A DNA stretch of 62,631 bases from Candidatus Liptonbacteria bacterium (GTDB taxonomy: Bacteria; Patescibacteriota; Minisyncoccia; UBA6257; 2-01-FULL-56-20), in contig JACOXZ010000010.1 of the NCBI GenBank assembly GCA_016182105.1, positions 1 to 62,631 of the forward strand. Direction: 5' to 3'. The notes under the pieces were generated by a model, which was given only the letters and a program-made list of their open reading frames with translations, was not told the origin of the DNA and did no database searches. The translations under genes were made by a program, and so were the position numbers. This document shows positions 3,553-57,036 of the stretch, piece after piece (the stretch's first letter is position 1; every line of letters starts with the position of its first letter).

Positions 3553-4338
3553 TCAAACCTTGCTGTGCTCGGTCTTGTACCACGGCAATCCATCCACCAT
3601 CTCGATGGTATAGTCGCCGAAAAGGTTGGGGTAACGTTTCGTCACGATCTCTCCGACTTTACCGAAGACGAGGCGGATTTCTTCCTCAGCGAATTTGTCT
3701 GTTCTCGCTTCAAGAACCCAGCGAATCGTTCTGGGGTTTGCCGACCAGCCAATCGTGGTCGCAAGGCCATCAGGAGCCAAGCGACGCATTGCCGAAGTGA
3801 TAACCTTCTTCCGGTGCATAGGAACACCGGGGTCGTCGAGCTTAAAATGTTCGGCCAATTCGACCTGAAGCGATTCAAGCTCTCTGAAGGTCTGCGCAAA
3901 AATCTCCACCGCTTCCTCGTCTTCTCGTATGGCTGTCGGCAACCACTGGCCAAGGTCGTCAAGCCGAACAAACCGGAGACTCTCTTGGGAGATAGCGACT
4001 CCGGGGCGGTGGCGCACCAGTTCGTGCGTGAAGACTCGGCTCACATCGGCGAAGATAAAATTAATAACCGGATGTTCGATGACCGAACCGTGCTTCACGT
4101 CAAGGATGTTGCCTATGTACTCCGCGTTCTCCTTGCGTACCTTGAGGACGTTCGGGTTCATCCCCGGTTTCCAACTTCGGTAGCAGAGGCGCCCATACAC
4201 CTCGATGATCCGTTCTATATCGGTTGGAGCGTCAGACTTCCACTCCGGAGCGCCGACGTGGTTCAGGTAGGCCCGAAGGCCTTCTTCAATAATCCTAGTT
4301 TCGCCAATGAGGTATACCTGCGGTTCAACTTTTCTCAC
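3553..4338 (-). CDS. thyX: FAD-dependent thymidylate synthase ThyX
   Basis: 261 aa. HELVRHRPGVAISQESLRFV contains the ThyX RHRxxS...S signature. GTG start preceded by AAAGGAGGAG. Confidence 0.9.
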   Translation of the reverse strand: MRKVEPQVYLIGETRIIEEGLRAYLNHVGAPEWKSDAPTDIERIIEVYGRLCYRSWKPGMNPNVLKVRKENAEYIGNILDVKHGSVIEHPVINFIFADVSRVFTHELVRHRPGVAISQESLRFVRLDDLGQWLPTAIREDEEAVEIFAQTFRELESLQVELAEHFKLDDPGVPMHRKKVITSAMRRLAPDGLATTIGWSANPRTIRWVLEARTDKFAEEEIRLVFGKVGEIVTKRYPNLFGDYTIEMVDGLPWYKTEHSKV

Positions 4339-6374: not shown

Positions 6375-6408
6375 AAAAAGCGAGCTGTTGGTCTCAAGAC
6401 AGCTCTCG
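6375..6408 (-). terminator. rho-independent terminator of groESL
   Basis: Minus sense GAGCTGT-CTTGAGACCA-ACAGCTC followed by GCTTTTTGG. Confidence 0.6.
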
Positions 6409-6523
6409 GAGCCCCGACGGGCTTGGTGTCGCCTGAGGCGACCCATTGGGGCGAGAGCGCAAGCGGGCGGACACCGCAGGAGTGGCCGAACCGGTGGTGT
6501 CGAGAGGCCAACAGCGAGCGACC
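6409..6523 (-). other. GC-rich, multi-hairpin 3' region directly after the groEL stop (unassigned structured RNA candidate)
   Basis: Local stems AGCCC/GGGCT, GTCGCC/GGCGAC and GACACC/GGTGTC, plus a long-range GCTGTTGG (6385-6392) / CCAACAGC (6508-6515) pairing. Confidence 0.3.
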
Positions 6524-8179
6524 CTAATAGTCCTCTCCCATCGGCGGCATACCCATACCTCCGCCTCCCATTCCTCTCTCCTTCTTCTCGGGTATATTCG
6601 TAACCGCCGCGCCAACCGTAAGGTAGTTAGCCGCCACAGAAATAGCATTCATGAATGCGGTCTTCACGACCTTCAAGGGGTCAATGATGCCTGCTTCCTT
6701 TAAGTCTGCAATCTTGTTCGTCATGGCGTTAAAGCCTAGCCACGGTTTGGACTGCGCTTTTTGCATTTTGAGTTCACTAATAATTTTACTTGGCGCCTCA
6801 CCGCTGTTTACAACAATCGCAGTCAAAGGCGCCTCGAGTGCGCGGCGGAGGATCATTGCGGCGGTTTGCTTCACGGTTACACTATCGCCTTTCGCTTCTT
6901 CCATCGTCGAGATCACATTGAAGAGCGCGATGCCGCCGCCGGGGACGATGCCCTCCTCCATCGCGGCGCGGGTTGCGTGAACGGCGTCCTCAACGCGTTG
7001 TTTCAATTCTTTCTGGGCAGACTCGGTCGGCGCGCCAACTTTGATGACTGCCACCCCGCCCGAGAGCTTGCCCAACCGCTCCTGGAGTTTTTCTTTATCA
7101 AAATCAGAGTCGGTCTTTTTGATCTGCGCCTTGATCTGCTGGACGCGAGCCTCGATATCGTTCTTTGCGCCCTTACCGCCCACGATTGTCGTATTATCTT
7201 TATTCGCAATCACTTTATGCGCGTGGCCGAGGTCGGCGACTACCACATTCTCGAGTTTCTTGCCCAAATCTTCCGAAATGAAGTTCGCGCCAGTTACAAC
7301 TGCGACATCCTGCAACATCTCCTTCCGTCGGTCGCCGAAACCCGGGGCCTTGACCGCCAAAACATTGAAGACGCCGCGAAGCTTGTTCACGACCAAGGTT
7401 GCGAGCGCTTCGCCCTCAACTTCGTCGGCGATAATCACAAGGTCTTTTTTGCCGCTCTGGACCACCTTTTCCAAAAGCGGCAAAAGCTCGGTGATTGAAG
7501 ATACTTTCTTGTCAGTTACCAAAATATAGGGGTCTTCGAGCACGGCTTCCATCCGCTCCTGGTTAGTGATCATATAGGGCGAGACGTAGCCGCGGTCAAA
7601 CTGCATCCCCTCGACCATATCATAGGAGTTGCCGATGGTGTTCGAATCCTCGATCGTGACCACCCCTTCCTTGCCAATTTTCCCCATCACTTCAGAGATC
7701 AAGCGGCCGATCTCCGGGTCTTTGGCTGCCAAGGTTGCCGACTCCTCAATTTTCTTATTGTCGTTAATGAGCTCGCGCTGGGATTCAAGTTTTTTCACGA
7801 CCTCGTTTGCAGAATGCCTAAGCTCTTCCGCAAGCTGAATCACGTTAAATCCCTTCTCGCGGATTGCCTTTTCGCCTTCGTCAATCATCGCGTGTGCCAA
7901 AACGACAGAGGTCGTGGTGCCGTCACCGACATTATCATTTGTTTTCTCCGCTGCCTGCTTTATGAAATCCGCGCCGAGGTTCTCGTATTTCTCTTCAAGC
8001 TCGATTTCTTTTGCAACTGTCACGCCGTCGAAGGTAACCTGCGGCGCTCCATAGCCCTTCTCGATCACAACCGCGCGGCCACGAGGGCCTAAAGTCATCC
8101 GGACCGCCTCCGCGAGCTTATCTATTCCTTTCTTTAGCGCCGCTCTGGCACTTTCGTTAAAAAGTAGTTGTTTTGCCAT
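6524..8179 (-). CDS. groEL: chaperonin GroEL
   Basis: 551 aa. AKQLLFNESAR...TLGPRGR...DGTTT... with a C-terminal GGGGMGM tail. Confidence 0.97.
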   Translation of the reverse strand: MAKQLLFNESARAALKKGIDKLAEAVRMTLGPRGRAVVIEKGYGAPQVTFDGVTVAKEIELEEKYENLGADFIKQAAEKTNDNVGDGTTTSVVLAHAMIDEGEKAIREKGFNVIQLAEELRHSANEVVKKLESQRELINDNKKIEESATLAAKDPEIGRLISEVMGKIGKEGVVTIEDSNTIGNSYDMVEGMQFDRGYVSPYMITNQERMEAVLEDPYILVTDKKVSSITELLPLLEKVVQSGKKDLVIIADEVEGEALATLVVNKLRGVFNVLAVKAPGFGDRRKEMLQDVAVVTGANFISEDLGKKLENVVVADLGHAHKVIANKDNTTIVGGKGAKNDIEARVQQIKAQIKKTDSDFDKEKLQERLGKLSGGVAVIKVGAPTESAQKELKQRVEDAVHATRAAMEEGIVPGGGIALFNVISTMEEAKGDSVTVKQTAAMILRRALEAPLTAIVVNSGEAPSKIISELKMQKAQSKPWLGFNAMTNKIADLKEAGIIDPLKVVKTAFMNAISVAANYLTVGAAVTNIPEKKERGMGGGGMGMPPMGEDY

Positions 8180-8187
8180 TGTTTTAG

Positions 8188-8478
8188 TTAGCCGATGATG
8201 GCTAGAATATCATCCTCATCTCCGACCAAGTATTTTTTCCCTTCGATTTCGATCTCATCCGGCCCGTACTTTTTAAAGAGCACCATGTCGCCGGGCGCGA
8301 CCGACATCGGCATCCGCTCGCCATTGTCCTTCACCTTGCCGGGGCCGATTGCCAAGACCTTGCCGCGGATGGGTTTCTCCTTGTCCGCCGTGTCGGGAAT
8401 CACAATTCCTGACTTCGTCATTTTTTCTTCGTCGACCGGTTCGATAAAAACGTGGTTTGAAAGTGGTTTGAAGTTCAT
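8188..8478 (-). CDS. groES: co-chaperonin GroES
   Basis: 96 aa. KPLSNHVFIEPVDEEKMTKSGIVIPDTA...GKVLAIGPG, 8 nt upstream of groEL. Confidence 0.95.
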   Translation of the reverse strand: MNFKPLSNHVFIEPVDEEKMTKSGIVIPDTADKEKPIRGKVLAIGPGKVKDNGERMPMSVAPGDMVLFKKYGPDEIEIEGKKYLVGDEDDILAIIG

Positions 8479-8537
8479 AACATTACGTGATTTATAACCT
8501 AATAACTAATTAGACCTTCGACTGTTAATGTTAAGAA

Positions 8538-8565
8538 ATTTTAGCGGAAACCGCCAGCGTGTCAA
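8538..8565 (-). promoter_or_regulatory. sigma70-type promoter of groES-groEL
   Basis: Minus sense TTGACA-16 nt-TAAAAT, about 60 nt upstream of the groES ATG. No CIRCE inverted repeat seen. Confidence 0.65.
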
Positions 8566-8710
8566 CCCCGTCACCAGATCGAGCCCTGCAACGCCTAAAC
8601 GCTTTCCCTATTTAATCGATTCCTCGCTGAAAATAGTCTATTTTATTGAAAAACTCTATATTTCCTTAGGCGTTGTGGAAAGCGAAGGGCTCGGCTCGGT
8701 GCGGGGTCAA
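8561..8710. repeat. 150-bp inverted-repeat module A (CCCCG...CGGGG termini, TCAA flanks) abutting the groES -35
   Basis: GTCAA-CCCCGTCACC...GGTGCGGGG-TCAA, with inner complementary pairs CGAGCCC/GGGCTCG, ACGCCTAA/TTAGGCGT and CGCTTTCC/GGAAAGCG. Confidence 0.7.
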
Positions 8711-9635
8711 GAGCCCGCCTTATTAATTTCTTCGTAGATATTCAAAACCGCTTTTACGGCATCCCCGGCCGAAATATTGTTCTGCTTGTAGAGCACGTCT
8801 GTTACGTCCCCCACTGCCCAGATGCCGGGCGCGGAGGTTTTCTGTGTTTTGTGGTCCACCACGATTTCGCCGAACTTATTTAGCTCCGCCATTCCCGCGA
8901 GAAAGTCCGTGTTTGGAATAGAGCCGATCTCAACGAAAACGCCTTGGAGATCGAGTGTTTTCTCTTCTCCCGTCTTACGATCTTTATACTTCAGGCCCGT
9001 CACGAACTTATCGCCCACAATTTTTTTCGTCTCGACCATCATCATAATGGTAACCTTGCCGTCCTTCTTCTTGATTGTTTCCTGTGTAATAGGATCGCCG
9101 CGGAGTACGTCTGTATACTCCATAAGATAAATCTTCGAGGCATACGGCAGGAGATCGAGAACGGCCTCAAGACCAGCATTCCCGCCACCCACGACTGCAA
9201 CCACCTTGTCCTTAAAAATCGGCGCGTCGCACGTCGAACAATAAGCGACTCCCCGGCCGTCTCGAGTTCTTTCTCGCCCGGGATGCCGAGCTTGCGCCGA
9301 CGGCTGCCGGTCGTAATTAAAAGATATTTCGTTTCAAAAGTTTTCCCGATTTGAGTTTTCACTTTGAAACCGCTCTGGAACTTTTCGACCGCCGAGACGA
9401 TGTCGCCCTCAATAATTTCAATACCTTCCTGTGCTCGGAGGTGATCCTCAAGCATTTTCGCGAAATCAAAACCGGAGACGGATTTCGTCCCAATCCAGTT
9501 TTGGATATCGGCGGAAACCAGGGACTGTCCGCCCCACTCTTCGGTTATGAGCAATGTTTTTATTTTCTTTCTGGCCCCGTAGACTCCCGCCGCTACTCCA
9601 CCCGGACCGCCTCCTATGATAATAAGGTCGTACAT
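8707..9635 (-). pseudogene. trxB: thioredoxin-disulfide reductase (TrxB) interrupted by a 1-nt frameshift near 9253-9263
   Basis: The N-terminal ORF (MYDLIIIGGGPGGVAAGVY...GIPGEKELE) and the C-terminal frame (GRGVAYCSTCDAPIFKDKVVAVVGGGNAGLEA...) are contiguous only after a -1 shift just upstream of the CSTC redox motif. Confidence 0.8.
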
Positions 9636-9656
9636 GGTTTAAAGGTGAGACTAGGT

Positions 9657-9743
9657 TTATTGCGGGAGTTGTACGGGGCGGGCCGCATAGACGCCGGCAG
9701 CCACGCCGCCGGGACCGCCGCCAACAATCACTAAATCATACAT
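9657..9743 (-). pseudogene. decayed duplicate of the trxB 5' end
   Basis: Minus-strand ATGTATGATTTAGTG... = MYDLVIVGGGPGGVAAGVYAARPVQLPQ*, versus trxB MYDLIIIGGGPGGVAAGVYGARKK. Confidence 0.6.
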
Positions 9744-9749
9744 ATTAAA

Positions 9750-9812
9750 TTATTGAGGTTGGCGAGCCTCGCCTCTGGCGGGCCGCCGATTATTTATTAT
9801 TAGATCATACAT
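9750..9812 (-). pseudogene. second, more degraded trxB 5' remnant
   Basis: ATGTATGATCTAATAATA... = MYDLIINNRRPARGEARQPQ*. It begins 6 nt after the glutaredoxin stop. Confidence 0.4.
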
Positions 9813-9817
9813 TCCGT

Positions 9818-10060
9818 TTAAATTTTGATATCCAAAGCTTTGGCGAGGGCGCTCCGATCAAAGCCCACAAAGATCTCGCCGTCAATATCAATCACTGGCA
9901 CTCCCAGCTGATGTGACTTATTAACCATGTCCTCGCGAGCCTTAGGGTCGCTTGCCACATCGCTCTCTTCATATTCAATGTTGTGCTTTTTAAATAGTTC
10001 TTTGGTCATCTTGCAGTAAACGCAGGAAGGGGTGGTATATATTTTAACTTTTTTGTCCAT
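9818..10060 (-). CDS. glutaredoxin-like protein (NrdH/YruB type)
   Basis: 80 aa. KIYTTPSCVYCKMTKELF (CxxC motif) and GVPVIDIDGEIFVGFD. Confidence 0.85.
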   Translation of the reverse strand: MDKKVKIYTTPSCVYCKMTKELFKKHNIEYEESDVASDPKAREDMVNKSHQLGVPVIDIDGEIFVGFDRSALAKALDIKI

Positions 10061-10075
10061 AAATATTATTTGGAT

Positions 10076-10240
10076 TCAAACGACCTTTTTCTCGAAGATC
10101 GCCCAAGCACTTAGAAGTACTATTAAGACTCCGGAAATGACATTGCTCCACTTCATCAAGCTAATGCTTGAAAATCCCAAGACCCATGGAGAAATAATGA
10201 TCCAAAAACCGGCTATAAGCTCTACCCATCTTGAAGTCAT
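10076..10240 (-). CDS. SPW-repeat small membrane protein (54 aa; not in ORF track)
   Basis: Own translation MTSRWVELIAGFWIIISPWVLGFSSISLMKWSNVISGVLIVLLSAWAIFEKKVV*, with the characteristic ISPWVLGF / WSNVI.G motifs. Confidence 0.6.
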   Translation of the reverse strand: MTSRWVELIAGFWIIISPWVLGFSSISLMKWSNVISGVLIVLLSAWAIFEKKVV

Positions 10241-10246
10241 AAATTA

Positions 10247-10274
10247 ATTTTATTGAAGATATTTCTTTCGTCAA
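10247..10274 (-). promoter_or_regulatory. sigma70-type promoter, probably giving a leaderless SPW-grx-trxB transcript
   Basis: Minus sense TTGACG-16 nt-TAAAAT, then only 6 nt (TAATTT) before the ATG at 10240. Confidence 0.6.
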
Positions 10275-10420
10275 CCCCGTCACCTTAGAAAGATTTCGTT
10301 TTTCAAAACGCTTTTTGCCAAAACACGGTTTCTACTTTTTAAAAATCTGATTTGCGAATGAAGAACGTCCTCTCAAGAAAAACGGCTGGCGCTCACATCT
10401 TTCTAAGGTGCGGGGTCAAC
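10270..10420. repeat. 151-bp inverted-repeat module B abutting the -35 of the SPW/grx/trxB promoter
   Basis: GTCAA-CCCCGTCACCTTAGAAAGAT...ATCTTTCTAAGGTGCGGGG-TCAAC. The arms are 19-20 bp with one bulged T. Confidence 0.75.
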
Positions 10421-10459
10421 AAAAAAATCCCCCCCGATCACGGTCGGGGGGGATTTTTT
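10421..10459. terminator. bidirectional rho-independent terminator
   Basis: AAAAAAA-TCCCCCCGA-TCACGG-TCGGGGGGA-TTTTTT. Confidence 0.75.
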
Positions 10460-10467
10460 GACTTTTC

Positions 10468-10638
10468 CTAGCGTCTGAACGACTGCCTCATTGAACGGTG
10501 GCAGTCGCGGCACAGAAGCTGATCCAAGCGATTCGGATCAGGATTGAAAGGCAAGCTTTCGATCTTCGCTCCGCACTTGGAACACTTCCAATCACCCTTG
10601 AACTCCTGACGCGGGGGTCGATTATCTTGATAATCCAT
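10468..10638 (-). CDS. CxxC-x17-CxxC zinc-ribbon small protein (56 aa; not in ORF track)
   Basis: Own translation MDYQDNRPPRQEFKGDWKCSKCGAKIESLPFNPDPNRLDQLLCRDCHRSMRQSFRR*. The KCxxCG...LPF.PD......C..C pattern is that of the CxxC-x17-CxxC domain family. Confidence 0.7.
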   Translation of the reverse strand: MDYQDNRPPRQEFKGDWKCSKCGAKIESLPFNPDPNRLDQLLCRDCHRSMRQSFRR

Positions 10639-10650
10639 AAACTTTTTATT

Positions 10651-10690
10651 ATTTCGCCCTTTATGTTAACTTAGCTTACCTGGGCGAAAT
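10651..10690 (-). promoter_or_regulatory. 9-bp inverted repeat spanning a candidate promoter of the zinc-ribbon gene
   Basis: ATTTCGCCC (10651-10659) / GGGCGAAAT (10682-10690). Minus sense TTAACA-16 nt-TAAGTT lies between the arms. Confidence 0.35.
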
Positions 10691-10741
10691 GTTAAAAAAA
10701 ACAAGCCCCAGCGCTAATTTAAACTATCTGTAAGTTTATTC

Positions 10742-11458
10742 TTATTTCAAAATACTGTCAATAGCGGCCTTAAATTGAGCGTAGGGAAGGGCGCCAATAA
10801 GCTTTTGGCTGTTAACAAAAGTTGTTGGCGTTGAGTTTACGCCCAGGGCTCTTGCGTTATTATTATCTTCTTCCACTTGTCTTGCATATTTTTTGCTATC
10901 AAAACAGGAAGTAAAGGAAGAATTATCGAGCTTAAGTTCGCTGGCTAATTTAAGGAAAAGGTCTCGATTTAAGTTGCCGTTGTTTTCACGGCCGTCTTTT
11001 ATTTCGGTTTCATAAATAGCGTCATGAAAGGCCCAGAACTGCTTCTGATCTTTGGCACATTCAGCCGCCTCTGCGGCGGCAGTTGACTCTGGCCCAAGAA
11101 AGGAGAAATTCATAAAAACCATTTTTACCTTGCCGGACTTAATGTAATTTTCCCGTAAAGGAATTTCCACCTGCTCAAAAAACCGACCGCAAAAAGGGCA
11201 CTGATAATCGCCGAATTCAATCAAAGTCACCGGCGCCTTGGGGTCTCCCAAGATTACATCGCGATCTGAAGTTTTTAGATTAGAGGTTTCTTTGATAGTG
11301 GCTAACTGGTCAGAGTCTTCTTTACCAACGTCACTAACGCCACCCGTGCTTCGGCTCCCAACTAAATAGACAATCGAGCCGGAAATTAAAATTGCCGCAA
11401 CAAGAATGCTCGCTGGCAAGAGATAGTCTCGTTTCTCTTTGTTCATTTCTCCTTCCAT
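10742..11458 (-). CDS. DsbA-family thiol:disulfide oxidoreductase, membrane-anchored
   Basis: 238 aa with an N-terminal TM helix and FGDYQCPFCGRF (CPFC active site). Confidence 0.85.
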   Translation of the reverse strand: MEGEMNKEKRDYLLPASILVAAILISGSIVYLVGSRSTGGVSDVGKEDSDQLATIKETSNLKTSDRDVILGDPKAPVTLIEFGDYQCPFCGRFFEQVEIPLRENYIKSGKVKMVFMNFSFLGPESTAAAEAAECAKDQKQFWAFHDAIYETEIKDGRENNGNLNRDLFLKLASELKLDNSSFTSCFDSKKYARQVEEDNNNARALGVNSTPTTFVNSQKLIGALPYAQFKAAIDSILK

Positions 11459-11470
11459 AAATTAGCCTTA

Positions 11471-11498
11471 ACTCTAGCATATAAAATTCTTGGGTCAA
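11471..11498 (-). promoter_or_regulatory. sigma70-type promoter of the dsbA-like gene
   Basis: Minus sense TTGACC-16 nt-TAGAGT, 12 nt before the ATG. Confidence 0.5.
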
Positions 11499-11641
11499 CC
11501 CCCACACTAATAGTGGTTTGCGAAGCTAACTGCATTCCATGGTTAAATTCAAACAACCTGATTTTTCCCGAAAAACCTTGTTGCTTAGGCCTAACTCTGG
11601 CTTCGTCTAGAATGCCTAACCACTATTAGTGTGGGGGTCAA
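11494..11641. repeat. 148-bp inverted-repeat module C abutting the dsbA-like -35
   Basis: GTCAA-CCCCCACACTAATAGTGGTT...AACCACTATTAGTGTGGGGG-TCAA, with perfect 20-bp arms. Confidence 0.8.
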
Positions 11642-11698
11642 GCACGGCTAAATTGCTAAAATATGCTAAAAATGTAAACTTAAAGAAAGTGGAAAAAT

Positions 11699-13081
11699 GT
11701 GAACGGGCTTTCTCTTAAAGAGAAGGCTTTATTATTAAAGCTGATGTCTAAAGATAAATGCAAGATTCTCATCCTCCTCTTCGGAGACATAGTCGTCCTC
11801 TACTTGGCGCTCTTCCTAACGCTCGCCATCCGCTATGGAAGTTTCTTTTTTGAAGCTTTCACTAATTTTCACGCTCGGCCTTTCTCGATCGTTTTTGCTT
11901 TATGGATCGCGGTCTTCTATATCGCTGGCCTCTACAATCTCCGTCATCTCCGCAACGGTTTTGACTTTCAAAAGAACTTGGCCTTGACCTTGGGCATAAA
12001 CGCCTTGATCGCCGTTTCTTTCTTCTACCTTATCCCGATCTTTGGCATTGCGCCAAGAAGAAATCTTTTCATCTTTCTTGTTATCTTCGCAGTCGTCCAA
12101 TTTTATTGGCGCCGTTTTTTCAATAGATCAGCCGCAAGCGGCGAGGCTCCAAATAAAGTACTCCTCGTTGGGAACGGCGGGACCGCCGAGGAGATCTATA
12201 AAACCATTACCTCTAATCCCCAGCTAGGATACGAAATAGTCAAATGGGAAAAGGAAGAAGAGGTTAACCAAACCATAAATAATTTAAAATCGCTTCTAAA
12301 AGAACATCGGGTTAATCTCGTTGTCGTTCCCAGGCATCTCAAAAAAAACGAGAGATTAAGTAAAAAACTTTATGAACTCCTCTCCATGGGCATAGAAATA
12401 AGAGATCTGCCTAATTTTTATGAATTGATTTTCCAAAAAATTCCGCTCTCTGACCTTGAAGAAACGTGGTTTCTCGAACACCTGGCTCACGGGCATCAGC
12501 GTTTCTACGACCAGCTAAAACGCGGCGGCGAATTTCTCTTGGCCTTAATTTTAGGCTTAGTCCTCTTACCCTTAGAATTATTGATCGCTATATTAATAAA
12601 AATCTTCTCGCCTGGCCCGGTGATTTACCGACAAAAAAGAGTAGGCAAAAACGGCCTGGAATTCACCCTCTACAAATTCCGAACCATGAAAGTTGACGCT
12701 GAAAAAGACGGCCCTAAATGGTCAAAACTTAATGACAAGCGATCGACCGCAATCGGCCACCTGCTTCGCTTTACCCACTTAGATGAACTGCCCCAGCTTT
12801 TAAATATCCTCAGGGGCGAGCTTTCCTTTGTTGGGCCAAGACCGGAAAGACCGGAGTTTGTCTTAAAGCTCCGCGAAGAGATCGCTCATTACGATATTCG
12901 GCATTTAATTAAACCGGGCATTACCGGCTGGGCCCAAATTAACCATCGCCATGAAGCTTCAGTCGAAGATACTCACGAAAAACTCCAGTACGACATTTAC
13001 TATTTAAAAAACCGCTCGCCGGTCCTCGATATGTCAATAATTTTAAAAACTTTTAAGAACTTTTTTGCCGATTCGTCTTAA
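11699..13081 (+). CDS. polyprenyl-phosphate glycosyl-1-phosphate transferase (WbaP/EpsB-type priming sugar transferase)
   Basis: 460 aa with N-terminal TM helices. PGPVIYRQKRVGKNG..F.LYKFRTM...LDELPQLLNILRGELSFVGPRPERPEF. GTG start. Confidence 0.9.
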   Translation: MNGLSLKEKALLLKLMSKDKCKILILLFGDIVVLYLALFLTLAIRYGSFFFEAFTNFHARPFSIVFALWIAVFYIAGLYNLRHLRNGFDFQKNLALTLGINALIAVSFFYLIPIFGIAPRRNLFIFLVIFAVVQFYWRRFFNRSAASGEAPNKVLLVGNGGTAEEIYKTITSNPQLGYEIVKWEKEEEVNQTINNLKSLLKEHRVNLVVVPRHLKKNERLSKKLYELLSMGIEIRDLPNFYELIFQKIPLSDLEETWFLEHLAHGHQRFYDQLKRGGEFLLALILGLVLLPLELLIAILIKIFSPGPVIYRQKRVGKNGLEFTLYKFRTMKVDAEKDGPKWSKLNDKRSTAIGHLLRFTHLDELPQLLNILRGELSFVGPRPERPEFVLKLREEIAHYDIRHLIKPGITGWAQINHRHEASVEDTHEKLQYDIYYLKNRSPVLDMSIILKTFKNFFADSS

Positions 13082-21687: not shown

Positions 21688-21730
21688 TGCTCTTGATATT
21701 ATCTAAAGAGTGCTTTTATGTCAAAGAAAT

Positions 21731-22741
21731 TCACGGCCTCAAGTTCACAACTTTTTTAGATTTAGAAGACTCGTAAATCGCCTCAATAATTTTATTTGCC
21801 GCAAGACCGTCATTGGCGTCGCCGATAATTTTTTCTTTGCCGCTTACCGCTCCCAGAAAATTTCTCCACTCATCTTCCCAACTTGAGTCTTTTAGGAATT
21901 CCAGAGTCTCTATGTCCGGAACCCCGAACTCTGGCTTTCTCTTTCCTATGGTTAAAGTCTCTGGGCCGTAACTCTTTCCTAGACCTTGAACGGCCAAAAA
22001 TCCCTTATCCCCAAAAGCTTCAAAAGAAAAAATGTTCTTCCAGTTGGTGGTACTCACATGAAAAGAAGCAGTAGTGTTTTTGTTTCTCAAAATTACAAAA
22101 GCGTTGTCTTCAAGATCGGTGTTCCAAAATTTCGTTTCGGCAATGCCATAAACCTCATCAAATTCACCAGCGAACCAGCGGCACAAATCGATGAGATGAA
22201 CTCCTTGATCCAAAAGCTCTCCGCCTCCGGAGATGTCTTTATTGAAACGCCACTCTTTTTCCATTCCAAGCCGTCCGCCGTGACCGTAGCGCCCGCGAAT
22301 AAAAAGAATCTTCCCGATAAGCCCTTCGTCAAAAAGTTGTTTCGCCTTAAAGATCGCCGGGTGGAACCGATGATTGAACCCGACTTTGACGATACGTCCG
22401 CTCCCTTCCGCCGCGTGATAAAGCTTCTCGGCTTCTTGGGCATTTTTCCCGAATGGCTTCTCCGCAAGAATATGCTTTCCGTTTTCAAGCGCCTTTAGGG
22501 CAATGGGCAGAAGAAATTTATTTGGAACGGCAATGATTACGATATCTATATCCTTCGAAGCGACGAGGTCTTCCCATCTCTCAAAAATTTGAGAGTGGTG
22601 ATCCTTGGAAAACTCCAGGGCTTTTTTCCTATCAATATCGCTTACAGCGACTAAAACTGCGCCTCCCACGTTCTCTATCACCTCAGCCCGCTTCCCGCCA
22701 ATAAGACCGGCTCCGACAATGCCAACGCGGATAGTTCTCAT
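21731..22741 (-). CDS. Gfo/Idh/MocA-family NAD(P) oxidoreductase
   Basis: IRVGIVGAGLIGGKRAE...ILAEKPF. Confidence 0.85.
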   Translation of the reverse strand: MRTIRVGIVGAGLIGGKRAEVIENVGGAVLVAVSDIDRKKALEFSKDHHSQIFERWEDLVASKDIDIVIIAVPNKFLLPIALKALENGKHILAEKPFGKNAQEAEKLYHAAEGSGRIVKVGFNHRFHPAIFKAKQLFDEGLIGKILFIRGRYGHGGRLGMEKEWRFNKDISGGGELLDQGVHLIDLCRWFAGEFDEVYGIAETKFWNTDLEDNAFVILRNKNTTASFHVSTTNWKNIFSFEAFGDKGFLAVQGLGKSYGPETLTIGKRKPEFGVPDIETLEFLKDSSWEDEWRNFLGAVSGKEKIIGDANDGLAANKIIEAIYESSKSKKVVNLRP

Positions 22742-22853
22742 CCCGTTAGAAGCAGATCGCGATCTAGGCGAATCTGCAGATTTATTTTATCGTAATGACT
22801 ATACATTGATTGATATTCAGAGTTTTTGCAACGAGATCGCGGCTTCTAACGGG
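22742..22853. repeat. stop/start-bridging inverted-repeat element, copy 1 (112 bp)
   Basis: CCCGTTAGAAGCAGATCGCGATC...GATCGCGGCTTCTAACGGG. It fills the whole gap between the stop at 22856-22858 and the start at 22741. Confidence 0.85.
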
Positions 22854-22855
22854 AC

Positions 22856-26970: not shown

Positions 26971-27017
26971 AATAGTTTACAGCGTATAACTGCCTTGCTT
27001 ACGTGTCAAAGAAAAGA

Positions 27018-27916: not shown

Positions 27917-29008
27917 TTACTGCATCTCGACTCGTCCCTTTTTTAATTCAATGGGAACCTGCTTCATTTTTAGTTTATCTTCCCACCAACTTCTGTTCTG
28001 TTTGTACCAATCAACCGTCAATCGCATACCGTCTTCGAAAGTCGTTCTCGGCTGCCATCCGAGCGCTGTTTTGATTTTCTTGAAATCGGCGGCGTGGCGG
28101 GAAACCTGACCGGGCCTGTCGCTTGTCGAAACCACCTGTACACCGCCCTTCGCCCCATTTACCGGCTCCACCATCTTCAAAACCAGATTAGCGATATACT
28201 TTATTGACACCCCTCTGCCGTTCCCGACGTTAAACACCTCCCCCACCACCTTTTCAGCAGACGCATGGAGCACGAGGTCAATCGCCCGAGCCACATCGTC
28301 AACATATGTAAAATCTCGCTGGCTTTCACCGGTTCCGTGAACGGTCAGCGGCTCGCCAATAATGCGGCTCGTGATAAAGCGGGGTATAACCTTCTCCGGG
28401 TGCTGGCGTGGCCCGAACAGATTGAACGACCGGATGATGACGCTGGGAATCTGATAACTCATATGGTAGGCGTAGATCAAGCGATCGGCGCCGGTTTTCG
28501 ATGCCGCGTATGGACTTTGGGGATTCAGGGGATGGTTTTCATCTATTAGTTCGCTCTCCGCCGTGCCGTATACTTCGCTCGTAGAAAAATGAATAAATCG
28601 CTCCACCTTGTCGCGGTTGCGGTGGACAGCGGTAGCCACCCGCTCGGTACCTAAGACGTTCGTTTCAAAAAAAATCTCGCCATCGGCGATGGAGCGCGCT
28701 ACATGTGTCTCCGCGGCAAAATGGATTACGTAATCAGCCTTCGCTACAAGATCGTCCACAACTTTTTTATCTCGTACGTCGCCTTTTACAAAAGTAAAGT
28801 TCCGGGACTTCTGAATTTCCTCGGTAATATCCCGCATATCCCCTGCGTAGGTCAGGGCATCCAAAACAACGTAATGGTAGTCGGGGTATTTGCGAAAAAA
28901 ATATGCAAGCACGTTGCTCCCCACAAATCCCGCGCCGCCCGTGATAAGAACAGTCTTGGACTGCGAAGCCATGTTTGTCATTCTACGATTTAAAAATCCG
29001 AGGGTCAA
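27917..29008 (-). CDS. rfbB: dTDP-glucose 4,6-dehydratase
   Basis: TVLITGGAGFVGSN...VVLDALTYAGD...YAASK. The true start is probably an internal Met (MASQSK). Confidence 0.85.
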   Translation of the reverse strand: MTLGFLNRRMTNMASQSKTVLITGGAGFVGSNVLAYFFRKYPDYHYVVLDALTYAGDMRDITEEIQKSRNFTFVKGDVRDKKVVDDLVAKADYVIHFAAETHVARSIADGEIFFETNVLGTERVATAVHRNRDKVERFIHFSTSEVYGTAESELIDENHPLNPQSPYAASKTGADRLIYAYHMSYQIPSVIIRSFNLFGPRQHPEKVIPRFITSRIIGEPLTVHGTGESQRDFTYVDDVARAIDLVLHASAEKVVGEVFNVGNGRGVSIKYIANLVLKMVEPVNGAKGGVQVVSTSDRPGQVSRHAADFKKIKTALGWQPRTTFEDGMRLTVDWYKQNRSWWEDKLKMKQVPIELKKGRVEMQ

Positions 29009-35152: not shown

Positions 35153-35280
35153 CCCCGTAGGAAATTAAATATTTTCCGTTAGCGTCTGACGACCTTGTAG
35201 TGTGTTTGGGGAATGATTTCATATTTGTTGATTTTAGCTTTAGCTCGAAAATATTTATTTTCTCGCTATTTCCTACGGGG
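35153..35280. repeat. stop/start-bridging inverted-repeat element, copy 4 (variant termini)
   Basis: CCCCGTAGGAAAT...ATTTCCTACGGGG (13-bp arms). The upstream stop TAG lies inside the arm and the downstream ATG is 1 nt outside. Confidence 0.8.
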
Positions 35281-43979: not shown

Positions 43980-44006
43980 TGCGCCGCTAACGCGCGCGAA
44001 GCTTTA

Positions 44007-44278
44007 GAACCCATCTCAAAAATCCCTTCGGCCGCGATATAGGCAAATCTTTCGCGGCGCAAGAAGCAAGGACGAAGGTGTATCCTATGATACTCCGAGT
44101 CCGAAGCGACGTGGTGCCGCGAAAGATTGGCCATATCCCCAGGGGGTTGCGGAGATTTTCTTCTCCCACTACGTTGCGGCTTCGTCGGAGTGGCACAAGC
44201 CACACATTCCTCGCCGCGCCTTGCGTAGAGAAGAAAATCTCTCGCAACGCGGCTAGAAGGGATTTTTGAGATGGGTTC
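44007..44278. mobile_element. E1: 272-bp structured (MITE-like) element bounded by terminal inverted repeats
   Basis: Perfect 22-bp terminal inverted repeats GAACCCATCTCAAAAATCCCTT / AAGGGATTTTTGAGATGGGTTC. Internal 14+5 bp helix GTTGC-g-GAGATTTTCTTCTC / GAGAAGAAAATCTC-tc-GCAAC. Homologous to E2 in reverse orientation. Confidence 0.75.
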
Positions 44279-45215
44279 GAATAAAAGTTTTCAATCTTTT
44301 ATAGATAATCCATACGCCCCAGACGACCGGATAAATACCGTATTTCTTCGCGAAATAAATATCCATAATCTTTCTGTATTTTCTGCGCTTCCACGGAGTT
44401 TTGTTGATGTAGTAAACATATTCCGGCTGATAGGGAAGCGCTGAGAGAAAATACCACGGTTTTCCGCCGCCCGCGAAGTGGACAACGAGCGGATCGGGTT
44501 CGTTGTAGGGATATGCCCCTATGGGTATCGCGGCGGCTATGAGATTGTATTTTATGCCAAGCTCTCTGTAGTCGCCCGCAAACACAAGGTTAAGAGCGTC
44601 TTGCTCGTGATATCGCAACTTGTCCGGATACTCATAGATCAACCTGTGAAGTTTTTCTTCTATGCCGCGCTTTCTCCAAAGCTCCAAATCAACAAGAAGC
44701 ATTCCGACACTGAAATACGCGGACTCTTGCGACGCAATGGGCCAATTGATGTCTTTGCGCAGCTTTTTCAAATGCCCCTGTCTTTCTTCTTGCTGACAAT
44801 CCGCGATTGCTCCTATTGTTTTCCTGCCCAGGTCCACGTTAAATAGTTCGGAAATATCCCCTCGAATCACCACGTCAACTTCAAGATTGATTACCCTGCG
44901 ACATGTAGGGGGAAGAAAACGCCCCAAATAAACGCGGTGAAAGGCCTCTACTGGAGCGTGAAATCCCTTAGACAAATCACCAAGCGGCAGTCCTTGGTAA
45001 AGCTTTTTATCAGGAAGAACATAGTTTATCGTAAATCCATATTTCTTCTCCAGAGTCTCCAATCGCTCTTTATTTTTTGCTGATATTCCAAAATCTACGA
45101 CGTAAAGGCTTATCGGGTAATCCCCTTTTTTGTTTTCGAAAAGAGAACACAAGGCAACCCCAAGGAGCATGGCGTAATTATCATTCGTGGCAAAAACAAC
45201 AGATACTTTTTCCAT
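44253..45215 (-). CDS. glycosyltransferase family 8
   Basis: VSVVFATNDNYAMLLGVALCSLFENK...NLEVDVVIRGD. Start taken at MEKVS. The last 8 codons (RTHLKNPF*) lie in the E1 terminal repeat. Confidence 0.85.
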   Translation of the reverse strand: MEKVSVVFATNDNYAMLLGVALCSLFENKKGDYPISLYVVDFGISAKNKERLETLEKKYGFTINYVLPDKKLYQGLPLGDLSKGFHAPVEAFHRVYLGRFLPPTCRRVINLEVDVVIRGDISELFNVDLGRKTIGAIADCQQEERQGHLKKLRKDINWPIASQESAYFSVGMLLVDLELWRKRGIEEKLHRLIYEYPDKLRYHEQDALNLVFAGDYRELGIKYNLIAAAIPIGAYPYNEPDPLVVHFAGGGKPWYFLSALPYQPEYVYYINKTPWKRRKYRKIMDIYFAKKYGIYPVVWGVWIIYKRLKTFIRTHLKNPF

Positions 45216-45237: not shown

Positions 45238-46098
45238 CTACACCTTATACCAGACAAACAAACGGAGAAGTGCCACTAGATTCCAAAATATAAGTTTAAT
45301 TCTGTCCCACATCTTTAAAGATTTTAAGCGCAATATAAAGATCATATTCGGGAAGTAAAGCGGTGAAAAAAACAACACAAACCTGACTTTGATATTGGAT
45401 AATACGCGTTTAATTCGCATAGACACACGTGGATTGGGATCAAGAACAAAAATTTTGGTGCGCTTATAAAAAAGAATTTCGTCGACGAGGGTAAAATGTC
45501 CCCTGACCAAACAGCGAAAAAGGAAGTCATACTCAAGAAATGGCTTGTCAATAAATTTACAATCAACAATTTTCTCGCGCCTCCAAACTCCATACGTCAT
45601 GTTGCCCTTTCCCCCAAGAATTGTAAGCAGAATAAATTCCTTGAGGCGTCCGTACAGATCCTTCTTAAACGTGAAAAATAATTTCGGATCTTCTTTTTGT
45701 GTCCTGCCTAAATCGTCGAAATGCATGAGTTTAGATATGGCAGCAATCGCTTCCTTGTCCGCATCCAAGGCGGCTATACATCTTTCCACGAAAGTCGGCG
45801 CCCGCTTATCATCGTCCGAAGCCCATATAAAATACTCACCTCTGGCATTTTTTTTGAGATATTCGAAGTTTCTGGCGTGGCCTATATTCGATCTCTGCCG
45901 TATATATTTTATACGTCGGTCCTTTTTCGCGTATTCCTCGCAGATCCGCGGAGTGTCGTCGGTAGAGGCGTTATCGGATATAACCAGCTCAAAATTTCTA
46001 TACGTCTGCGCAAGCAGCGAATCCAATGCCTCGCGCAAATAAGATTGCCCGTTATGCGTAGCTAAGCCGATGCTTACCAATTTTTCTTTAGAACCCAT
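45238..46098 (-). CDS. glycosyltransferase family 2
   Basis: MGSKEKLVSIGLATHNGQSYLREALDSLLAQTYRNFELVISDNASTDDT. The start ATG at 46098 and the GGAGG RBS lie inside the E2 terminal repeat. The track ORF extension to 46242 is read-through into E2. Confidence 0.85.
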   Translation of the reverse strand: MGSKEKLVSIGLATHNGQSYLREALDSLLAQTYRNFELVISDNASTDDTPRICEEYAKKDRRIKYIRQRSNIGHARNFEYLKKNARGEYFIWASDDDKRAPTFVERCIAALDADKEAIAAISKLMHFDDLGRTQKEDPKLFFTFKKDLYGRLKEFILLTILGGKGNMTYGVWRREKIVDCKFIDKPFLEYDFLFRCLVRGHFTLVDEILFYKRTKIFVLDPNPRVSMRIKRVLSNIKVRFVLFFSPLYFPNMIFILRLKSLKMWDRIKLIFWNLVALLRLFVWYKV

Positions 46099-46366
46099 CT
46101 TAATAATACCTCCAGCCCGCGTTGCTGGCGATTTTCTCGTATCCGCAAGGCTTGTCGAGTGAGCTGTGCTTGATGCACTGCGATCGAGGCGTAACGCAGC
46201 GGGACGGGAAAATCGCCGCAACCCCAAGGGGGATATGGCCAATTTCCGCAGTACCGGCGTCGCTTCCTCCTCGGAGTACCACAGGAGGGTACACTTTCGT
46301 CGTCGTTCCTTGGTCTTGCAGAAATTGGCTCATATCGCGAGCGGAGATATTATTAAGATGGGTTCT
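46091..46366. mobile_element. E2: 276-bp structured (MITE-like) element bounded by terminal inverted repeats, inverted relative to E1
   Basis: Terminal repeats GAACCCATCTTAATAATACCTCC / GGAGATATTATTAAGATGGGTTC (1 mismatch). Internal helix GTTGC-t-GGCGATTTTC / GAAAATCGCC-GCAAC. The core GGGGATATGGCCAAT is the reverse complement of the E1 ATTGGCCATATCCCC. Confidence 0.75.
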
Positions 46367-54638: not shown

Positions 54639-54676
54639 AATAGTAAAAACAATATATCCTTAACCACTCTGGAATG

Positions 54677-55954
54677 TCAAAAAACGGAGGATGGCTGTTC
54701 TTTCGGGTTAAGCTTGAGGAGCAATATGCCAAAAAATACTCCGAGCGTGAACCACAAATGGCGGAATAGGAAAGCATCGGCGAAAAATATATCGAGAAGA
54801 ATAAAAATTGCCGCCGCTATCCATGCCATTTCGCTATCTTGCATCTCAATTCTTTTTTCTCGAAAAACGCGGAGTGCGCTGTTACCCAATCTAAAAATAA
54901 AAAATAAAAACAATATGAATGCCCCTAACCCTCCATACACAATAACCTCGAGATAGCTGTTAAATGATTGGTGGTTGAAGCGCTCGACAATACCCGCGCC
55001 TAGATCTACGAAGGGAGCATCAGGGGTGGCAATGACGAGTCCGAGACCGAAAGGTTTACTAATAAAAAATGGGGTAGTTTTTATCCAAATCTTTGTTCTA
55101 ATCTGATTCTCAAGGGGACTTTGCGCCAGGGTTGTGATACGATGGGCCGTTCTTTGAAAAGCAACTCCATTTTGTGCCGCAAGAAGCCCGTACCCCATAA
55201 GGAAAGCGAATATAGTGATACAGAGAATACGCAGCGCTTTCTTCTTTTTGCGTTCCTTTAGGAGCGCAAAGAGACACCAGGCGACGATACCGAAAGGCAA
55301 AGACACCCAAACAGACCGCGTCGCGCTCCAAAGAATGAAATTCGCGATCATGCCCAACCAGAGCCCAAGAACAACTCTCTCTAATCGTTTTTTTGACTCG
55401 AGAAATAACCCTATCCCCGCAAAGAACACGACCCCCATCCAAAGTCCGAAAATAATCGGGTTCTCTTGGAATATTCCTCCGAGGCGACCCCCGGATCCTA
55501 CGGAAATAAAAATATTTTCATTATATGGCCCGTCGAAATAGACAGGAAGCATAACCAATGTTGATATCAAAACCGCCCTGCTTATATACCTAACGAGAAT
55601 CGGGTAACAATATACAGCAATTGCAATGGATATAAATACAAAAGAGTTGAAGAGGAATCTGGCGTAATTAAGTACGATATAATAACTCATCGCAATACCG
55701 TAATTAAAGTAATTAAATATTTGACCAGCTATAAAAAGACAGAAAAGACCGCCTAAAATAAGGCAATATGGCCGGAGAAACGGCCATATGGTTTTTAGAG
55801 ATTTTATCTTAGTTGCAATTGCCAACAGCGCTAAGGCAAGAACAATATCAACCAGTTGCGGCGAACGAGGCATTCGAATAATAAAAAAAAATGCGGCGAT
55901 CGATACCGCTCCGATGATCCATCGGGAATCTTTATTCATAAAAAAATTATCCAT
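54677..55954 (-). CDS. polytopic membrane protein, O-antigen ligase/polymerase (Wzy)-like
   Basis: 425 aa with about 10-12 TM segments, inside the glycan cluster. No strict motif verified. Confidence 0.5.
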   Translation of the reverse strand: MDNFFMNKDSRWIIGAVSIAAFFFIIRMPRSPQLVDIVLALALLAIATKIKSLKTIWPFLRPYCLILGGLFCLFIAGQIFNYFNYGIAMSYYIVLNYARFLFNSFVFISIAIAVYCYPILVRYISRAVLISTLVMLPVYFDGPYNENIFISVGSGGRLGGIFQENPIIFGLWMGVVFFAGIGLFLESKKRLERVVLGLWLGMIANFILWSATRSVWVSLPFGIVAWCLFALLKERKKKKALRILCITIFAFLMGYGLLAAQNGVAFQRTAHRITTLAQSPLENQIRTKIWIKTTPFFISKPFGLGLVIATPDAPFVDLGAGIVERFNHQSFNSYLEVIVYGGLGAFILFLFFIFRLGNSALRVFREKRIEMQDSEMAWIAAAIFILLDIFFADAFLFRHLWFTLGVFFGILLLKLNPKEQPSSVF

Positions 55955-55997: not shown

Positions 55998-56936
55998 TTA
56001 TTGAGACGAAAGTTCGCGCACAATGCTTTTATAGTCAATGTCCATTGCGTCTGAAACAGGATTCAGCCAGTTATCTCCAAGCTTACGTTTTATGAAAATA
56101 TCTTTTTTAAGACTGATGCCGCGCGCGGCTGCGAGCAAAGAAAAACAGGATAAATTCTCGCTTTTGCTGTCGTCGAACACGACTAGCTTTCCTGTTTTGC
56201 GTACGCTCCTCAAAATCGGCTCCCAGTCAATAGGAGTCATATAGCTTACATTAAAAACCGCGGGTTTCAAGCCGGTTTGTTCCATTTCGAGGCCGAGCTG
56301 CCAGCCGTACGGGAAGGAAAAATTAAAAGTGACGATCGTCGCATCGCTACCGTCCCTATACTGCACGAACTTCATATCCTTGTCCGCAAGGATCGGCTCT
56401 CCGGGATCGATAATATCGTCTTTATACATCCTCTGACTGAAACTTATAATGCGGAATCCGGGTCTGCCAAAATGGATGTCGATGATTTTCTCTGTGTCAT
56501 ACTTATTGGTAACCGCGTAGCCATCAATCCTCGCCATAGAACAAAAATCCGCGAAGTTATTGGAACTCGACTGTGGCCCTTCATATCCCATATCAACCGT
56601 GACTGGCAATATCGTGAATGAGCCCTTAGCGTGCTTGCTATTTCTTATGATGTTATAGGTGTTAACCAGCTGATCAATGCCCAAGAAAAGAAAATCAAGT
56701 TGTTTCATGAAGAATGCCGCCTTCCCGCCGCCAAGCATCACGCCGAACCCAAACCCGACAAGCGAATTCTCGGTGTTTGTCGTATTGATGATCATGCCCG
56801 TCTCTTTTACCGCAAATCCTTTCGTAAAACCGCTGATACGGGAGCCGGCGCTAACGTTCTGACCATAAACCACGAGTCCGTCGTGCGAACTGACCGCATT
56901 ACGCAGAACCGCGTTGACGTGTTCAAGATATTTCAT
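55998..56936 (-). CDS. divergent E1 beta-like (transketolase C-terminal-like) subunit
   Basis: 312 aa. NTTNTENSLVGFGFGVMLGGGK, in the position of the E1-beta EagfvG motif. Follows an E1-alpha-like gene. Confidence 0.65.
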   Translation of the reverse strand: MKYLEHVNAVLRNAVSSHDGLVVYGQNVSAGSRISGFTKGFAVKETGMIINTTNTENSLVGFGFGVMLGGGKAAFFMKQLDFLFLGIDQLVNTYNIIRNSKHAKGSFTILPVTVDMGYEGPQSSSNNFADFCSMARIDGYAVTNKYDTEKIIDIHFGRPGFRIISFSQRMYKDDIIDPGEPILADKDMKFVQYRDGSDATIVTFNFSFPYGWQLGLEMEQTGLKPAVFNVSYMTPIDWEPILRSVRKTGKLVVFDDSKSENLSCFSLLAAARGISLKKDIFIKRKLGDNWLNPVSDAMDIDYKSIVRELSSQ

Positions 56937-57034: not shown

Positions 57035-57036
57035 AT

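Follow-up and report, generated by a model that had tools for sequence, protein, structure and literature searches.

We analyzed a stretch of 62,631 nucleotides from a Candidatus Liptonbacteria bacterium (contig JACOXZ010000010.1; the whole stretch is called the window below), in which three hairpin-forming modules of about 140 bp, here labeled M1, M2 and M3, each abut the -35 box of a predicted promoter. We conclude with high confidence that these modules are non-autonomous mobile elements of the MITE type (for miniature inverted-repeat transposable element), and that they were inserted in pre-existing promoters with duplication of 4 bp of the target. The family to which they belong is MITE-like and apparently undescribed. 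We found no description of a MITE-like family common to several lineages of the candidate phyla radiation (CPR, or Patescibacteria) in the literature searched, and the CPR goes unmentioned in a recent review of MITEs in prokaryotes. The genomes of CPR members are tiny and gene-dense, and the usual description is that they contain little mobile DNA.

All coordinates refer to the + strand, and the modules and the genes beside them are on the - strand. M1 is a hairpin element of 141 bp (8566-8706) with the ends CCCCGCACC...GGTGACGGGG, and is of the GAGCCGAGC/GCTCGATCT sublineage. M2 is also 141 bp (10275-10415) and is of the TTAGAAAGAT/ATCTTTCTAA sublineage, and M3 is 139 bp (11499-11637) and is of the CCCCCACAC.../...GTGTGGGGG sublineage. 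On the + strand each module reads TCAA, then CCCC...GGGG, then TCAA again. In gene sense this is TTGA, CCCC leading into one arm, the complementary arm leading into GGGG, and finally TTGAC(A/G/C)-N16-TA(A/G)A(A/G)T. All the features given in the original prediction for three inverted-repeat modules fused to -35 boxes are present in the sequence. The proximal copy of TTGA (TCAA on the + strand) forms the first four bases of the groES promoter at M1 (8562-8565), the start of the promoter of the SPW/grx/trxB unit at M2 (10271-10274), and the start of the promoter of the dsbA-like gene at M3 (11495-11498). The distal copy at M1 (8707-8710) contains the trxB stop codon TGA (8707-8709), that at M2 (10416-10419) comes in gene sense right after the terminator of a zinc-ribbon gene (10422-10459), and that at M3 (11638-11641) is the other half of the M3 duplication. 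The TTGA pair around each module is a 4-bp direct repeat, and such a repeat, flush with the ends of an inverted-repeat element, is the hallmark of a target-site duplication (TSD).

The arms of M3 are 21 nt long and fully complementary. Those of M2 are complementary over at least 19 nt with one bulged base, and those of M1 over about 21 nt with one bulge and a 4-nt patch of wobbles and mismatches. The complementarity that had been predicted was borne out, and of the predicted arm lengths (9, 19 and 20 bp) that of M1, 9 bp, proved too short. When compared to shuffled sequences, the folds of the three modules had z-scores of -4.2 to -8.0 on either strand. The modules have no coding capacity, and the open reading frames (ORFs) that overlap them are spurious.

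Evidence for insertion comes from syntenic contigs of relatives, which we retrieved via GroEL and DsbA homologues. In L192 and L194, with DsbA proteins 87% and 82% identical to that of the window, the M2 locus consists of the zinc-ribbon gene, the same terminator, and TTTTTG-TTGAC(T/G)-N16/17-TAAAAT-TAATCT-ATG, where ATG is the start of the SPW-domain gene; there is a single TTGA and no element. At the M3 locus, L193 reads ...GGCAATCTGGCCGCTC-TTGA-CCCGCTAACTTTATATGCTAGAGT... upstream of dsbA, again with only one TTGA; to either side of it the sequence is colinear with that of the window. The dsbA promoter has one TTGA and lacks M3 in L192, L193 and L194 alike. The window equals the relative plus an element and a second TTGA, and L192 and L194 (for M2) and L193 (for M3) are exact empty sites. 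The SPW promoter also has a single TTGA in L174, and in the distant relatives L003, L174 and L176 the dsbA, SPW, trxB and groES promoters are of the form TTGACx-N17-TAnnnT, none of them with a module. At the M1 locus, L001 (GroEL 94% identical) has the same groES promoter (TTGACACGTTACAGGTTTCGGCTAAAAT), with unrelated DNA upstream of the TTGA. The promoters are older than the insertions. These data establish insertion, the 4-bp duplication, and the prior existence of the promoter.

The three modules are 62-67% identical to one another and have little in common beyond their ends. M1 is 82-83% identical to L125_5158 and L145_2859, which are copies from other organisms, and copies like M3 are present in L142. 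Because M1 is nearer to foreign copies than to M2 or M3, the modules are three independent insertions, of three different sublineages, rather than local copies. Local hopping was rejected as the source of the cluster, since the copies belong to different sublineages.

Copies elsewhere were identified in two scans. The first used only the ends, CCCCGCACC-N105-135-GGTGACGGGG, and covered one genome per GTDB species. Most of its matches were chance occurrences in GC-rich genomes, and about 13 real CPR copies were among the matches listed. The true copies among the matches listed, which have extended complementary arms, were in Wolfebacteria, Harrisonbacteria, Sungiibacteriota (two copies), Parcubacteria, four metagenome-assembled genomes (MAGs) of Saccharibacteria, and one Hainich 'Patescibacteria' MAG. 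In viral contigs the ends pattern gave 12 GC-rich chance matches and zero real copies. The second scan, of metagenomes, used a more specific pattern that required the terminal bases and the extra bulged base and was blind to the flanks. It recovered 52 copies on contigs of 39-58% GC, many of them from groundwater samples of the closest relatives of the window. An exact flanking direct repeat of at least 4 bp was found in 43 of these 52 copies, compared to 0.2 expected by chance, and the flanking repeats of the remaining nine were off by one base.

MAGs and metagenomes together gave at least 53 unique copies after removal of duplicates, with up to two per locus examined. At the 53 unique sites, the first position of the TSD was C or T and the fourth was A or G throughout; the second was mainly T or A, and the third was never C. 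The target consensus is Y-W-D-R. Repeats of the TTGA type were the commonest (about 21, plus four with TCAA), followed by CAAG/CTTG (11) and then by CAGG, TATG, CGGG, CTGG and CTAG. One of the two explanations offered in the original prediction, a MITE with a preference for TTGA, is supported by the exact empty sites, by the 4-bp duplications of these copies, by the insertions in tRNA and 5S genes described below, and by the lack of conservation at orthologous promoters. A covariance model built from the 52 copies, M1 and M2 included, recovered M1 with 120 bits (E 5e-25), M2 with 65 bits (E 2e-12) and M3 with 24 bits (E 0.002), and found no copy beyond these three in the window. Rfam had no match to the modules even at E≤5, and at the gathering threshold found one tRNA only in the window. 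Several of the features by which MITEs are recognized are present: small size, absence of coding sequence, terminal inverted repeats, a TSD of fixed length, empty sites (for M2 and M3), and dispersed copies.

Tandem stacking on one 4-mer was common, in the form X-TTGA-[E1]-TTGA-[E2]-TTGACA (L152 775-850, L172 7521-7584, and L169 from 413; also at the right flanks in L132 and L143), and included hairpins of about 65-75 bp from other families. Since the duplication rebuilds the target, the same site is open to another insertion. GGG(G) was found directly 5' of the repeat at about 13 of the 53 sites, and a neighboring element does not explain all of these cases (for example, L145).

The three modules are unexceptional family members, and promoters beside the element were not peculiar to the window. 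A sequence matching TTGAnn-N15-19-TAnnnT started at the right-flank repeat in 17 copies, and at the left-flank repeat, on the opposite strand, in three. About 21 copies have TTGA flanks, and 17 of them abut such a promoter. Abutment on a -35 box is a general habit of the family and a property of its target. The genes behind these promoters included rpoB (two independent insertions), tuf, rplC, rplJ, secE, and genes for a sigma70-region-4 protein, a DksA-type zinc finger, a SIS protein, a nucleotidyltransferase, and a class II aminoacyl-tRNA synthetase. There was one DsbA-like neighbor of a copy (in the Saccharibacteria MAG L100), and several neighboring genes were unknown. Given this functional diversity, the neighbors do not constitute a stress regulon. 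An ORF-based test of element orientation relative to the flanking genes was too noisy for use. The window itself has about 12 promoters of the TTGAC type, with an element at three and none at the other nine.

Some copies interrupt RNA genes, or carry them. Inverted repeats enclose four of the 27 RNA genes checked: those in L035, L041 and L143, and a 5S gene in L169 whose repeat ends are different. The L035 copy (1770-1911, in the region 1733-1950) has an intact tRNA-Gly(CCC) inside. With the repeat (C)CAAG, it is lodged in a resident tRNA-Gly(CCC), at the anticodon loop, and the halves of the resident tRNA still form a perfect cloverleaf. The L041 copy (2796-2936, in the region 2600-2980) has tRNA-Gly(UCC) inside and is likewise in the anticodon loop of a resident tRNA-Gly, with the repeat (C)CAAG; this outer tRNA also has a second, ordinary copy in its acceptor stem, with the repeat CGGG. 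The L143 copy (660-837, in the region 440-930) has a complete 5S rRNA inside (80.8 bits). This cargo copy and a tandem ordinary copy split the resident 5S gene, which aligns full-length to the inner 5S once the inserts are removed. In all three cases the cargo copy splits a resident gene of the same kind with a duplication of 4-5 bp. Because the sequence of the uninterrupted tRNA loop is known, these cases demonstrate independently that the insertion created or brought the flanking repeat. We infer that, where the target is a single-copy RNA gene, an insertion persists only when a working copy comes with the element, and that from then on the element cannot be lost.

In an alignment of the 52 copies, neither the 9/10 bp at the ends nor the one bulged base varied, both being fixed by the search patterns, and the helix next to these fixed ends had compensatory changes. 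The bulge is one base, 5 bp from the tip, and is absent in the 5S-carrying copy of L143. The inner blocks, two on the 5' side and two on the 3' side, are complementary in the order X, Y, X', Y', so that helices X and Y are mutually exclusive within one simple hairpin. Helix X was 75% paired, compared to 44-63% in slid controls, and helix Y was 66% paired, compared to 31-52%; both had double-sided changes. M3, read directly, has the same X/Y arrangement with different sequences. An H-type pseudoknot of X and Y was rejected because the linkers, of 1-3 nt, are too short for stems of 8-9 bp, and X and Y are therefore alternatives. G.U and A.C cells were equally frequent in X and Y together (70 and 79), which gives no sign of selection on one RNA strand. 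RNAalifold, applied to a MAFFT alignment, recovered the outer stem and nothing else. The covarying arms fit folding of single-stranded DNA on both strands, or neutral template-switch repair within quasi-palindromes, which is an established mechanism.

In the account that we propose, the element is a non-coding, almost fully self-complementary hairpin of 139-141 bp, with the conserved ends CCCCGCACC...GGTG(A)CGGGG, and its insertion duplicates a 4-bp Y-W-D-R target, most commonly TTGA. In these compact genomes, most intergenic TTGA sequences are the start of a -35 hexamer. The duplication leaves the TTGACx -35 box whole, 16-17 bp from the -10 and flush with the proximal end of the element, and a spare TTGA remains distally; at M1 this spare copy is the source of the trxB stop codon. 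The element is probably mobilized by a transposase acting in trans through staggered cuts of 4 bp, presumably of the DDE type and with a target logic like that of IS5. Copies may persist at such places because insertion there breaks nothing and because there are few such places in a gene-dense genome. Effects on the promoters would be side effects, for which displacement of upstream DNA by 145 bp, an RNA hairpin formed on read-through, and cruciform extrusion are candidates.

Several observations weigh against this proposal. In the window and about 65 CPR loci, no matching ends were found 0.3-4 kb apart around a gene, other than chance pairs; with no autonomous partner found, it is the duplication alone that points to the class of enzyme. 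M1 has no clean empty site, because the spacer between trxB and groES is different in the relatives obtained. Three sublineages are found at three of four adjacent promoters, which has a probability of about 0.02 if all TTGAC promoters are equal targets (a post hoc calculation). The orientation of the promoter-adjacent copies is biased 17:3, with the bulge-bearing arm beside the -35 (binomial p ~0.003), and symmetric cut-and-paste transposition with neutral survival does not predict such a bias. Finally, the arms vary by sublineage yet stay complementary, and there are two mutually exclusive inner helices with compensatory changes; such arm covariation is unusual for inverted repeats bound by a transposase.

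A wider interpretation, which we entertain only tentatively, is that a CPR-wide superfamily of hairpin transposons is specialized for the 'punctuation' of genes, moves as single-stranded DNA, and uses RNA-gene cargo as an addiction strategy. The targets of such a superfamily would be the TTGA of -35 boxes, ATG start codons, and ATGA stop/start overlaps, and the duplication, at times assisted by the base at the terminus or by a TAG within the arm, would rebuild the signal on both sides. Movement as folded single-stranded DNA would explain the bulge, the covarying arms and the orientation bias, and tRNA-Gly or 5S cargo that splits the resident copy would make the derivatives indispensable.

It seems unlikely that elements of mobile origin were subsequently exapted, as an insulator or terminator, an RNase III site, or a supercoiling-sensitive cruciform, and are kept in one orientation by selection. 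An exapted role would explain the orientation bias. The neighbors are frequently highly expressed (groES, rpoB, tuf, ribosomal protein genes, secE), M1 is the only terminator candidate between trxB and groES, and there is a precedent in the Correia elements (PMC2649163). However, M2 is already behind a canonical terminator and M3 is between divergent genes, so there is no consistent need. In addition, close relatives lack the element, no T-run follows the hairpin, and there is no strand-specific G.U signature of a function at the RNA level.

It also seems unlikely, although this is a live variant of our main account, that the element moves as a hairpin of single-stranded DNA through a structure-reading enzyme, either a tyrosine recombinase or an HUH/Y1 transposase like those of IS200/IS605 or the RAYTs, with the 4-mer as a recognized or carried core in place of a staggered-cut duplication. 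Such an enzyme would fit the one-base bulge found 5 bp from the tip in all pattern-matching copies (the pattern required the extra base), arms that covary rather than hold one sequence, and an orientation biased relative to an asymmetric target. Equal counts of G.U and A.C would be seen if both strands of the DNA were important, or if neither strand of the RNA were, and the targets are often hairpin loops (the tRNA anticodon loop, a terminator loop). On the other hand, near-identical copies have different 4-mers (TTGA for M1, (C/T)GTG for L125_5158) with no matching change in the terminal 20 nt, so that arbitrary YWDR duplication fits better than a guide-and-core mechanism. A weak search revealed no HUH gene nearby, and IS200/IS605 elements are not known to have long-range inverted repeats or duplications. 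A palindrome-associated transposable element (PATE) derived from IS200/IS605 was also considered. PATEs have subterminal hairpins at each end, no long-range inverted repeat and no duplication, and insert 3' of a fixed tetra- or pentanucleotide. This candidate was rejected because a long-range inverted repeat spans the element and the duplicated 4-mers vary (TTGA, CAAG, CTTG, TATG and CAGG, among others).

It is very improbable that the modules are small structured RNA genes or other elements acting at the RNA level (a non-coding RNA, a ribozyme, or an intron-like insert), with the long closing stem as a processing helix. The folds are stable, several helices have compensatory changes, and copies with the same arms enclose bona fide tRNA-Gly and 5S genes in the same polarity. 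However, in addition to the lack of any Rfam match, G.U and A.C are equal in the variable helices and RNAalifold supports the outer stem only. The promoter-adjacent copies lack a promoter of their own and are located upstream of the neighboring one, and target duplications and empty sites show insertion of DNA.

The other explanation in the original prediction was a shared stress-responsive cis-module. It noted correctly that groES lacks the controlling inverted repeat of chaperone expression (CIRCE): we found no TTAGCACTC-N9-GAGTGCTAA between the promoter and groES in the window. CIRCE is present at groES in the relatives L003 and L176, and L001 has neither CIRCE nor a module. We give almost no credence to a conserved operator, looping site or cruciform that co-regulates proteostasis and thiol-redox promoters in place of CIRCE/HrcA: three of four adjacent promoters (groESL, SPW-grx-trxB and dsbA) do carry a hairpin, groES lacks the CIRCE that relatives have, and the L100 copy adjoins a DsbA-like gene, but the orthologous promoters of relatives are without a hairpin, as exact empty sites, L001 lacks CIRCE and module alike, M1-M3 are alike in little but their ends, and elsewhere the element is found before rpoB (twice), tuf, rplC, rplJ and secE as well as in terminator loops and RNA genes. 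The search for copies elsewhere yielded rpoB, tuf, rplC, rplJ, secE, sigma-like and aminoacyl-tRNA synthetase genes, among others, which is an outcome that the original prediction had named as refuting this explanation, a random distribution of copies with respect to gene function.

As MITE-type insertions, the CPR elements behave most like known bacterial MITEs, and in their link to promoters they are closest to the Correia elements (CREE/NEMIS) of Neisseria. Correia elements are also non-coding, 100-155 bp long, with terminal inverted repeats and a short TSD, and are scattered beside genes; their duplicated target joins a promoter element, they form long RNA hairpins, and effects on neighboring genes are possible (PMC2649163, PMC10969869). 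Correia elements duplicate TA and supply their own -35 and -10, whereas here a 4-bp YWDR duplication regenerates an existing -35 and no promoter is supplied. Their host range is one genus, compared to many CPR lineages here, and there is no sequence similarity. Covarying arms and RNA-gene cargo further distinguish the CPR element; we know of no Correia copy with a tRNA or rRNA gene.

IS5-derived MITEs, ERIC, RUP and bcr1 resemble the CPR element in size, absence of coding sequence, terminal inverted repeats, and intergenic location, and in duplicating a 4-mer that is loosely palindromic and of fixed length. For the IS5 group this 4-mer is YTAR, according to the ISfinder family descriptions. 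The ends of the CPR element begin with CCCC, unlike the GGAAGG of IS5, and its arms covary by sublineage with only 9-10 terminal bp fixed; a parental IS was not identified here. REPINs were reportedly described by Bertels and Rainey in 2011 as hairpin doublets, and are said to move as single-stranded DNA. REP sequences and REPINs, mobilized by RAYTs, resemble the CPR element as intergenic hairpin doublets of about 100 nt with compensatory evolution of the arms and many copies per genome, and movement as single-stranded DNA is thought to apply to REPINs (PMC4690160). They differ in having no TSD, a GTAG-type motif beside each REP hairpin, and a tie to a RAYT gene, none of which was seen here. 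The cargo copies of L035, L041 and L143 are like tRNA-targeting integrative elements in that they interrupt tRNA-Gly or 5S genes and a working gene copy remains. Classical elements of that type are kilobases long and use site-specific recombination to restore the 3' portion of the tRNA, whereas the cargo copies are about 140-180 bp, bring a complete foreign gene copy, and interrupt the resident gene while duplicating 4-5 bp.

Four other candidates were rejected. A sigma32-type promoter (TTGA..CCCC) has the wrong spacing, and an outward promoter in the element end (GTGACG) has the wrong spacing to any -10. Tn3-type ends have GGGG in the opposite strand polarity. The flanks are direct (TTGA...TTGA), unlike those of an integron attC site, and direct reading gave no RYYYAAC/GTTRRRY pair.

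The promoters beside the modules, all on the - strand, were scored in a promoter scan. The groES promoter (TTGACA-N16-TAAAAT, 8538-8565) scored 11/12, the SPW/grx/trxB promoter (TTGACG-N16-TAAAAT, 10247-10274) 10/12, and the promoter of the dsbA-like gene (TTGACC-N16-TAGAGT with TG before the -10, 11471-11498) 9/12. These three sigma70-type promoters, which had been predicted from the proximal ends of the modules, were among the four best matches in 8100-11900. Downstream of M1 are groES (8188-8478) and then groEL (6524-8179). The unit downstream of M2 comprises the SPW-domain gene (10076-10240), grx (9818-10060), and trxB in two overlapping frames (8707-9635), and downstream of M3 is a DsbA/Thioredoxin_4 gene (10742-11458). 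All of these genes are on the - strand, as is a zinc-ribbon gene (56 aa) in the 8.1-11.9 kb region; a divergent sugar-transferase gene is beyond the dsbA-like gene. The best named matches of GroEL were from Colwell-, Lipton-, Jorgensen- and Wolfebacteria, which assigns the window, within the CPR, to Parcubacteria/Paceibacterota. Exact-protein look-ups gave no match for the GroES, glutaredoxin and zinc-ribbon proteins of the window.

The ATG of the SPW-domain gene is only 6 nt past the -10, and its mRNA therefore looks leaderless. Promoters of the form TTGAC-N16-18-TAnnnT in the window often end only 6-14 nt ahead of the start codon (for example, 10247-10274, 21696-21724 and 26981-27009; also 28980-29008 and 54651-54680), which suggests that leaderless mRNAs, or mRNAs with very short leaders, are common in this genome. 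There is a frameshift in trxB near 9204-9260, and the relatives L001 and L192 have a single ORF of 306 aa. An extra short copy of the trxB 5' end (MYDLVIVGGGPGG...) is just upstream of trxB, at 9680-9745. The split trxB could be either a pseudogene or an assembly error.

Other hairpin elements are present in the window. A second family (TCCCGTTAGAAG...CTTCTAACGGGA, 100-122 bp) is found at 22741-22854, 56936-57035 and 58864-58985, between consecutive - strand genes of a polysaccharide cluster and with TGAA/TGAG flanks. The proximal repeat and the last base of the element rebuild the ATG of the downstream gene, and the upstream gene is stopped by the TGA of the distal repeat or, in one copy, by a TAG in the arm. 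These copies look like insertions into ATGA stop/start overlaps. Another hairpin element (CCCCGTAGGAAAT...) at 35153-35280 has TATG flanks (CATA on the other strand); the downstream gene has its start codon within the proximal repeat, and the upstream ORF ends at a TAG of the distal arm. A separate family (CCCAGTA...), also with TATG flanks, is found in L035 (6389-6679), L162 (1014-1308 and 6287-6422), L165 (2725-2862) and L144 (8343-8478). The target 4-mers appear to be specific to each family.

Two modules of 278 bp (44004-44281 and 46090-46366) have terminal inverted repeats of 24-26 nt (AGAACCCATCT...) around an interior that is GC-rich and contains two inner hairpins, and their interiors are mutually reverse-complementary. 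Each has ATG and then GGTTCT in its proximal arm, and the downstream ORFs would begin MGSK; there was no Rfam match and no obvious target duplication. A GC-rich module of 132 bp (6384-6515), just downstream of groEL, has inverted ends of 18 nt and TCGCT on both sides, and also had no Rfam match. A similar GC-rich stretch is found after trxB in L192 (~3760-3900).

For the CPR, MITE-type insertions of this kind illustrate a transposon strategy suited to a genome with almost no spare DNA, in which an element lands on short signals and rebuilds them by duplication. Through the copies that carry an RNA gene and split the resident one, core RNA genes would be replaced horizontally by a compact route. 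In annotation, such hairpins should not be taken for assembly artefacts, nor for small RNAs or modules of regulation. With base-pair precision, they show where real promoters are in organisms without any mapped promoter.

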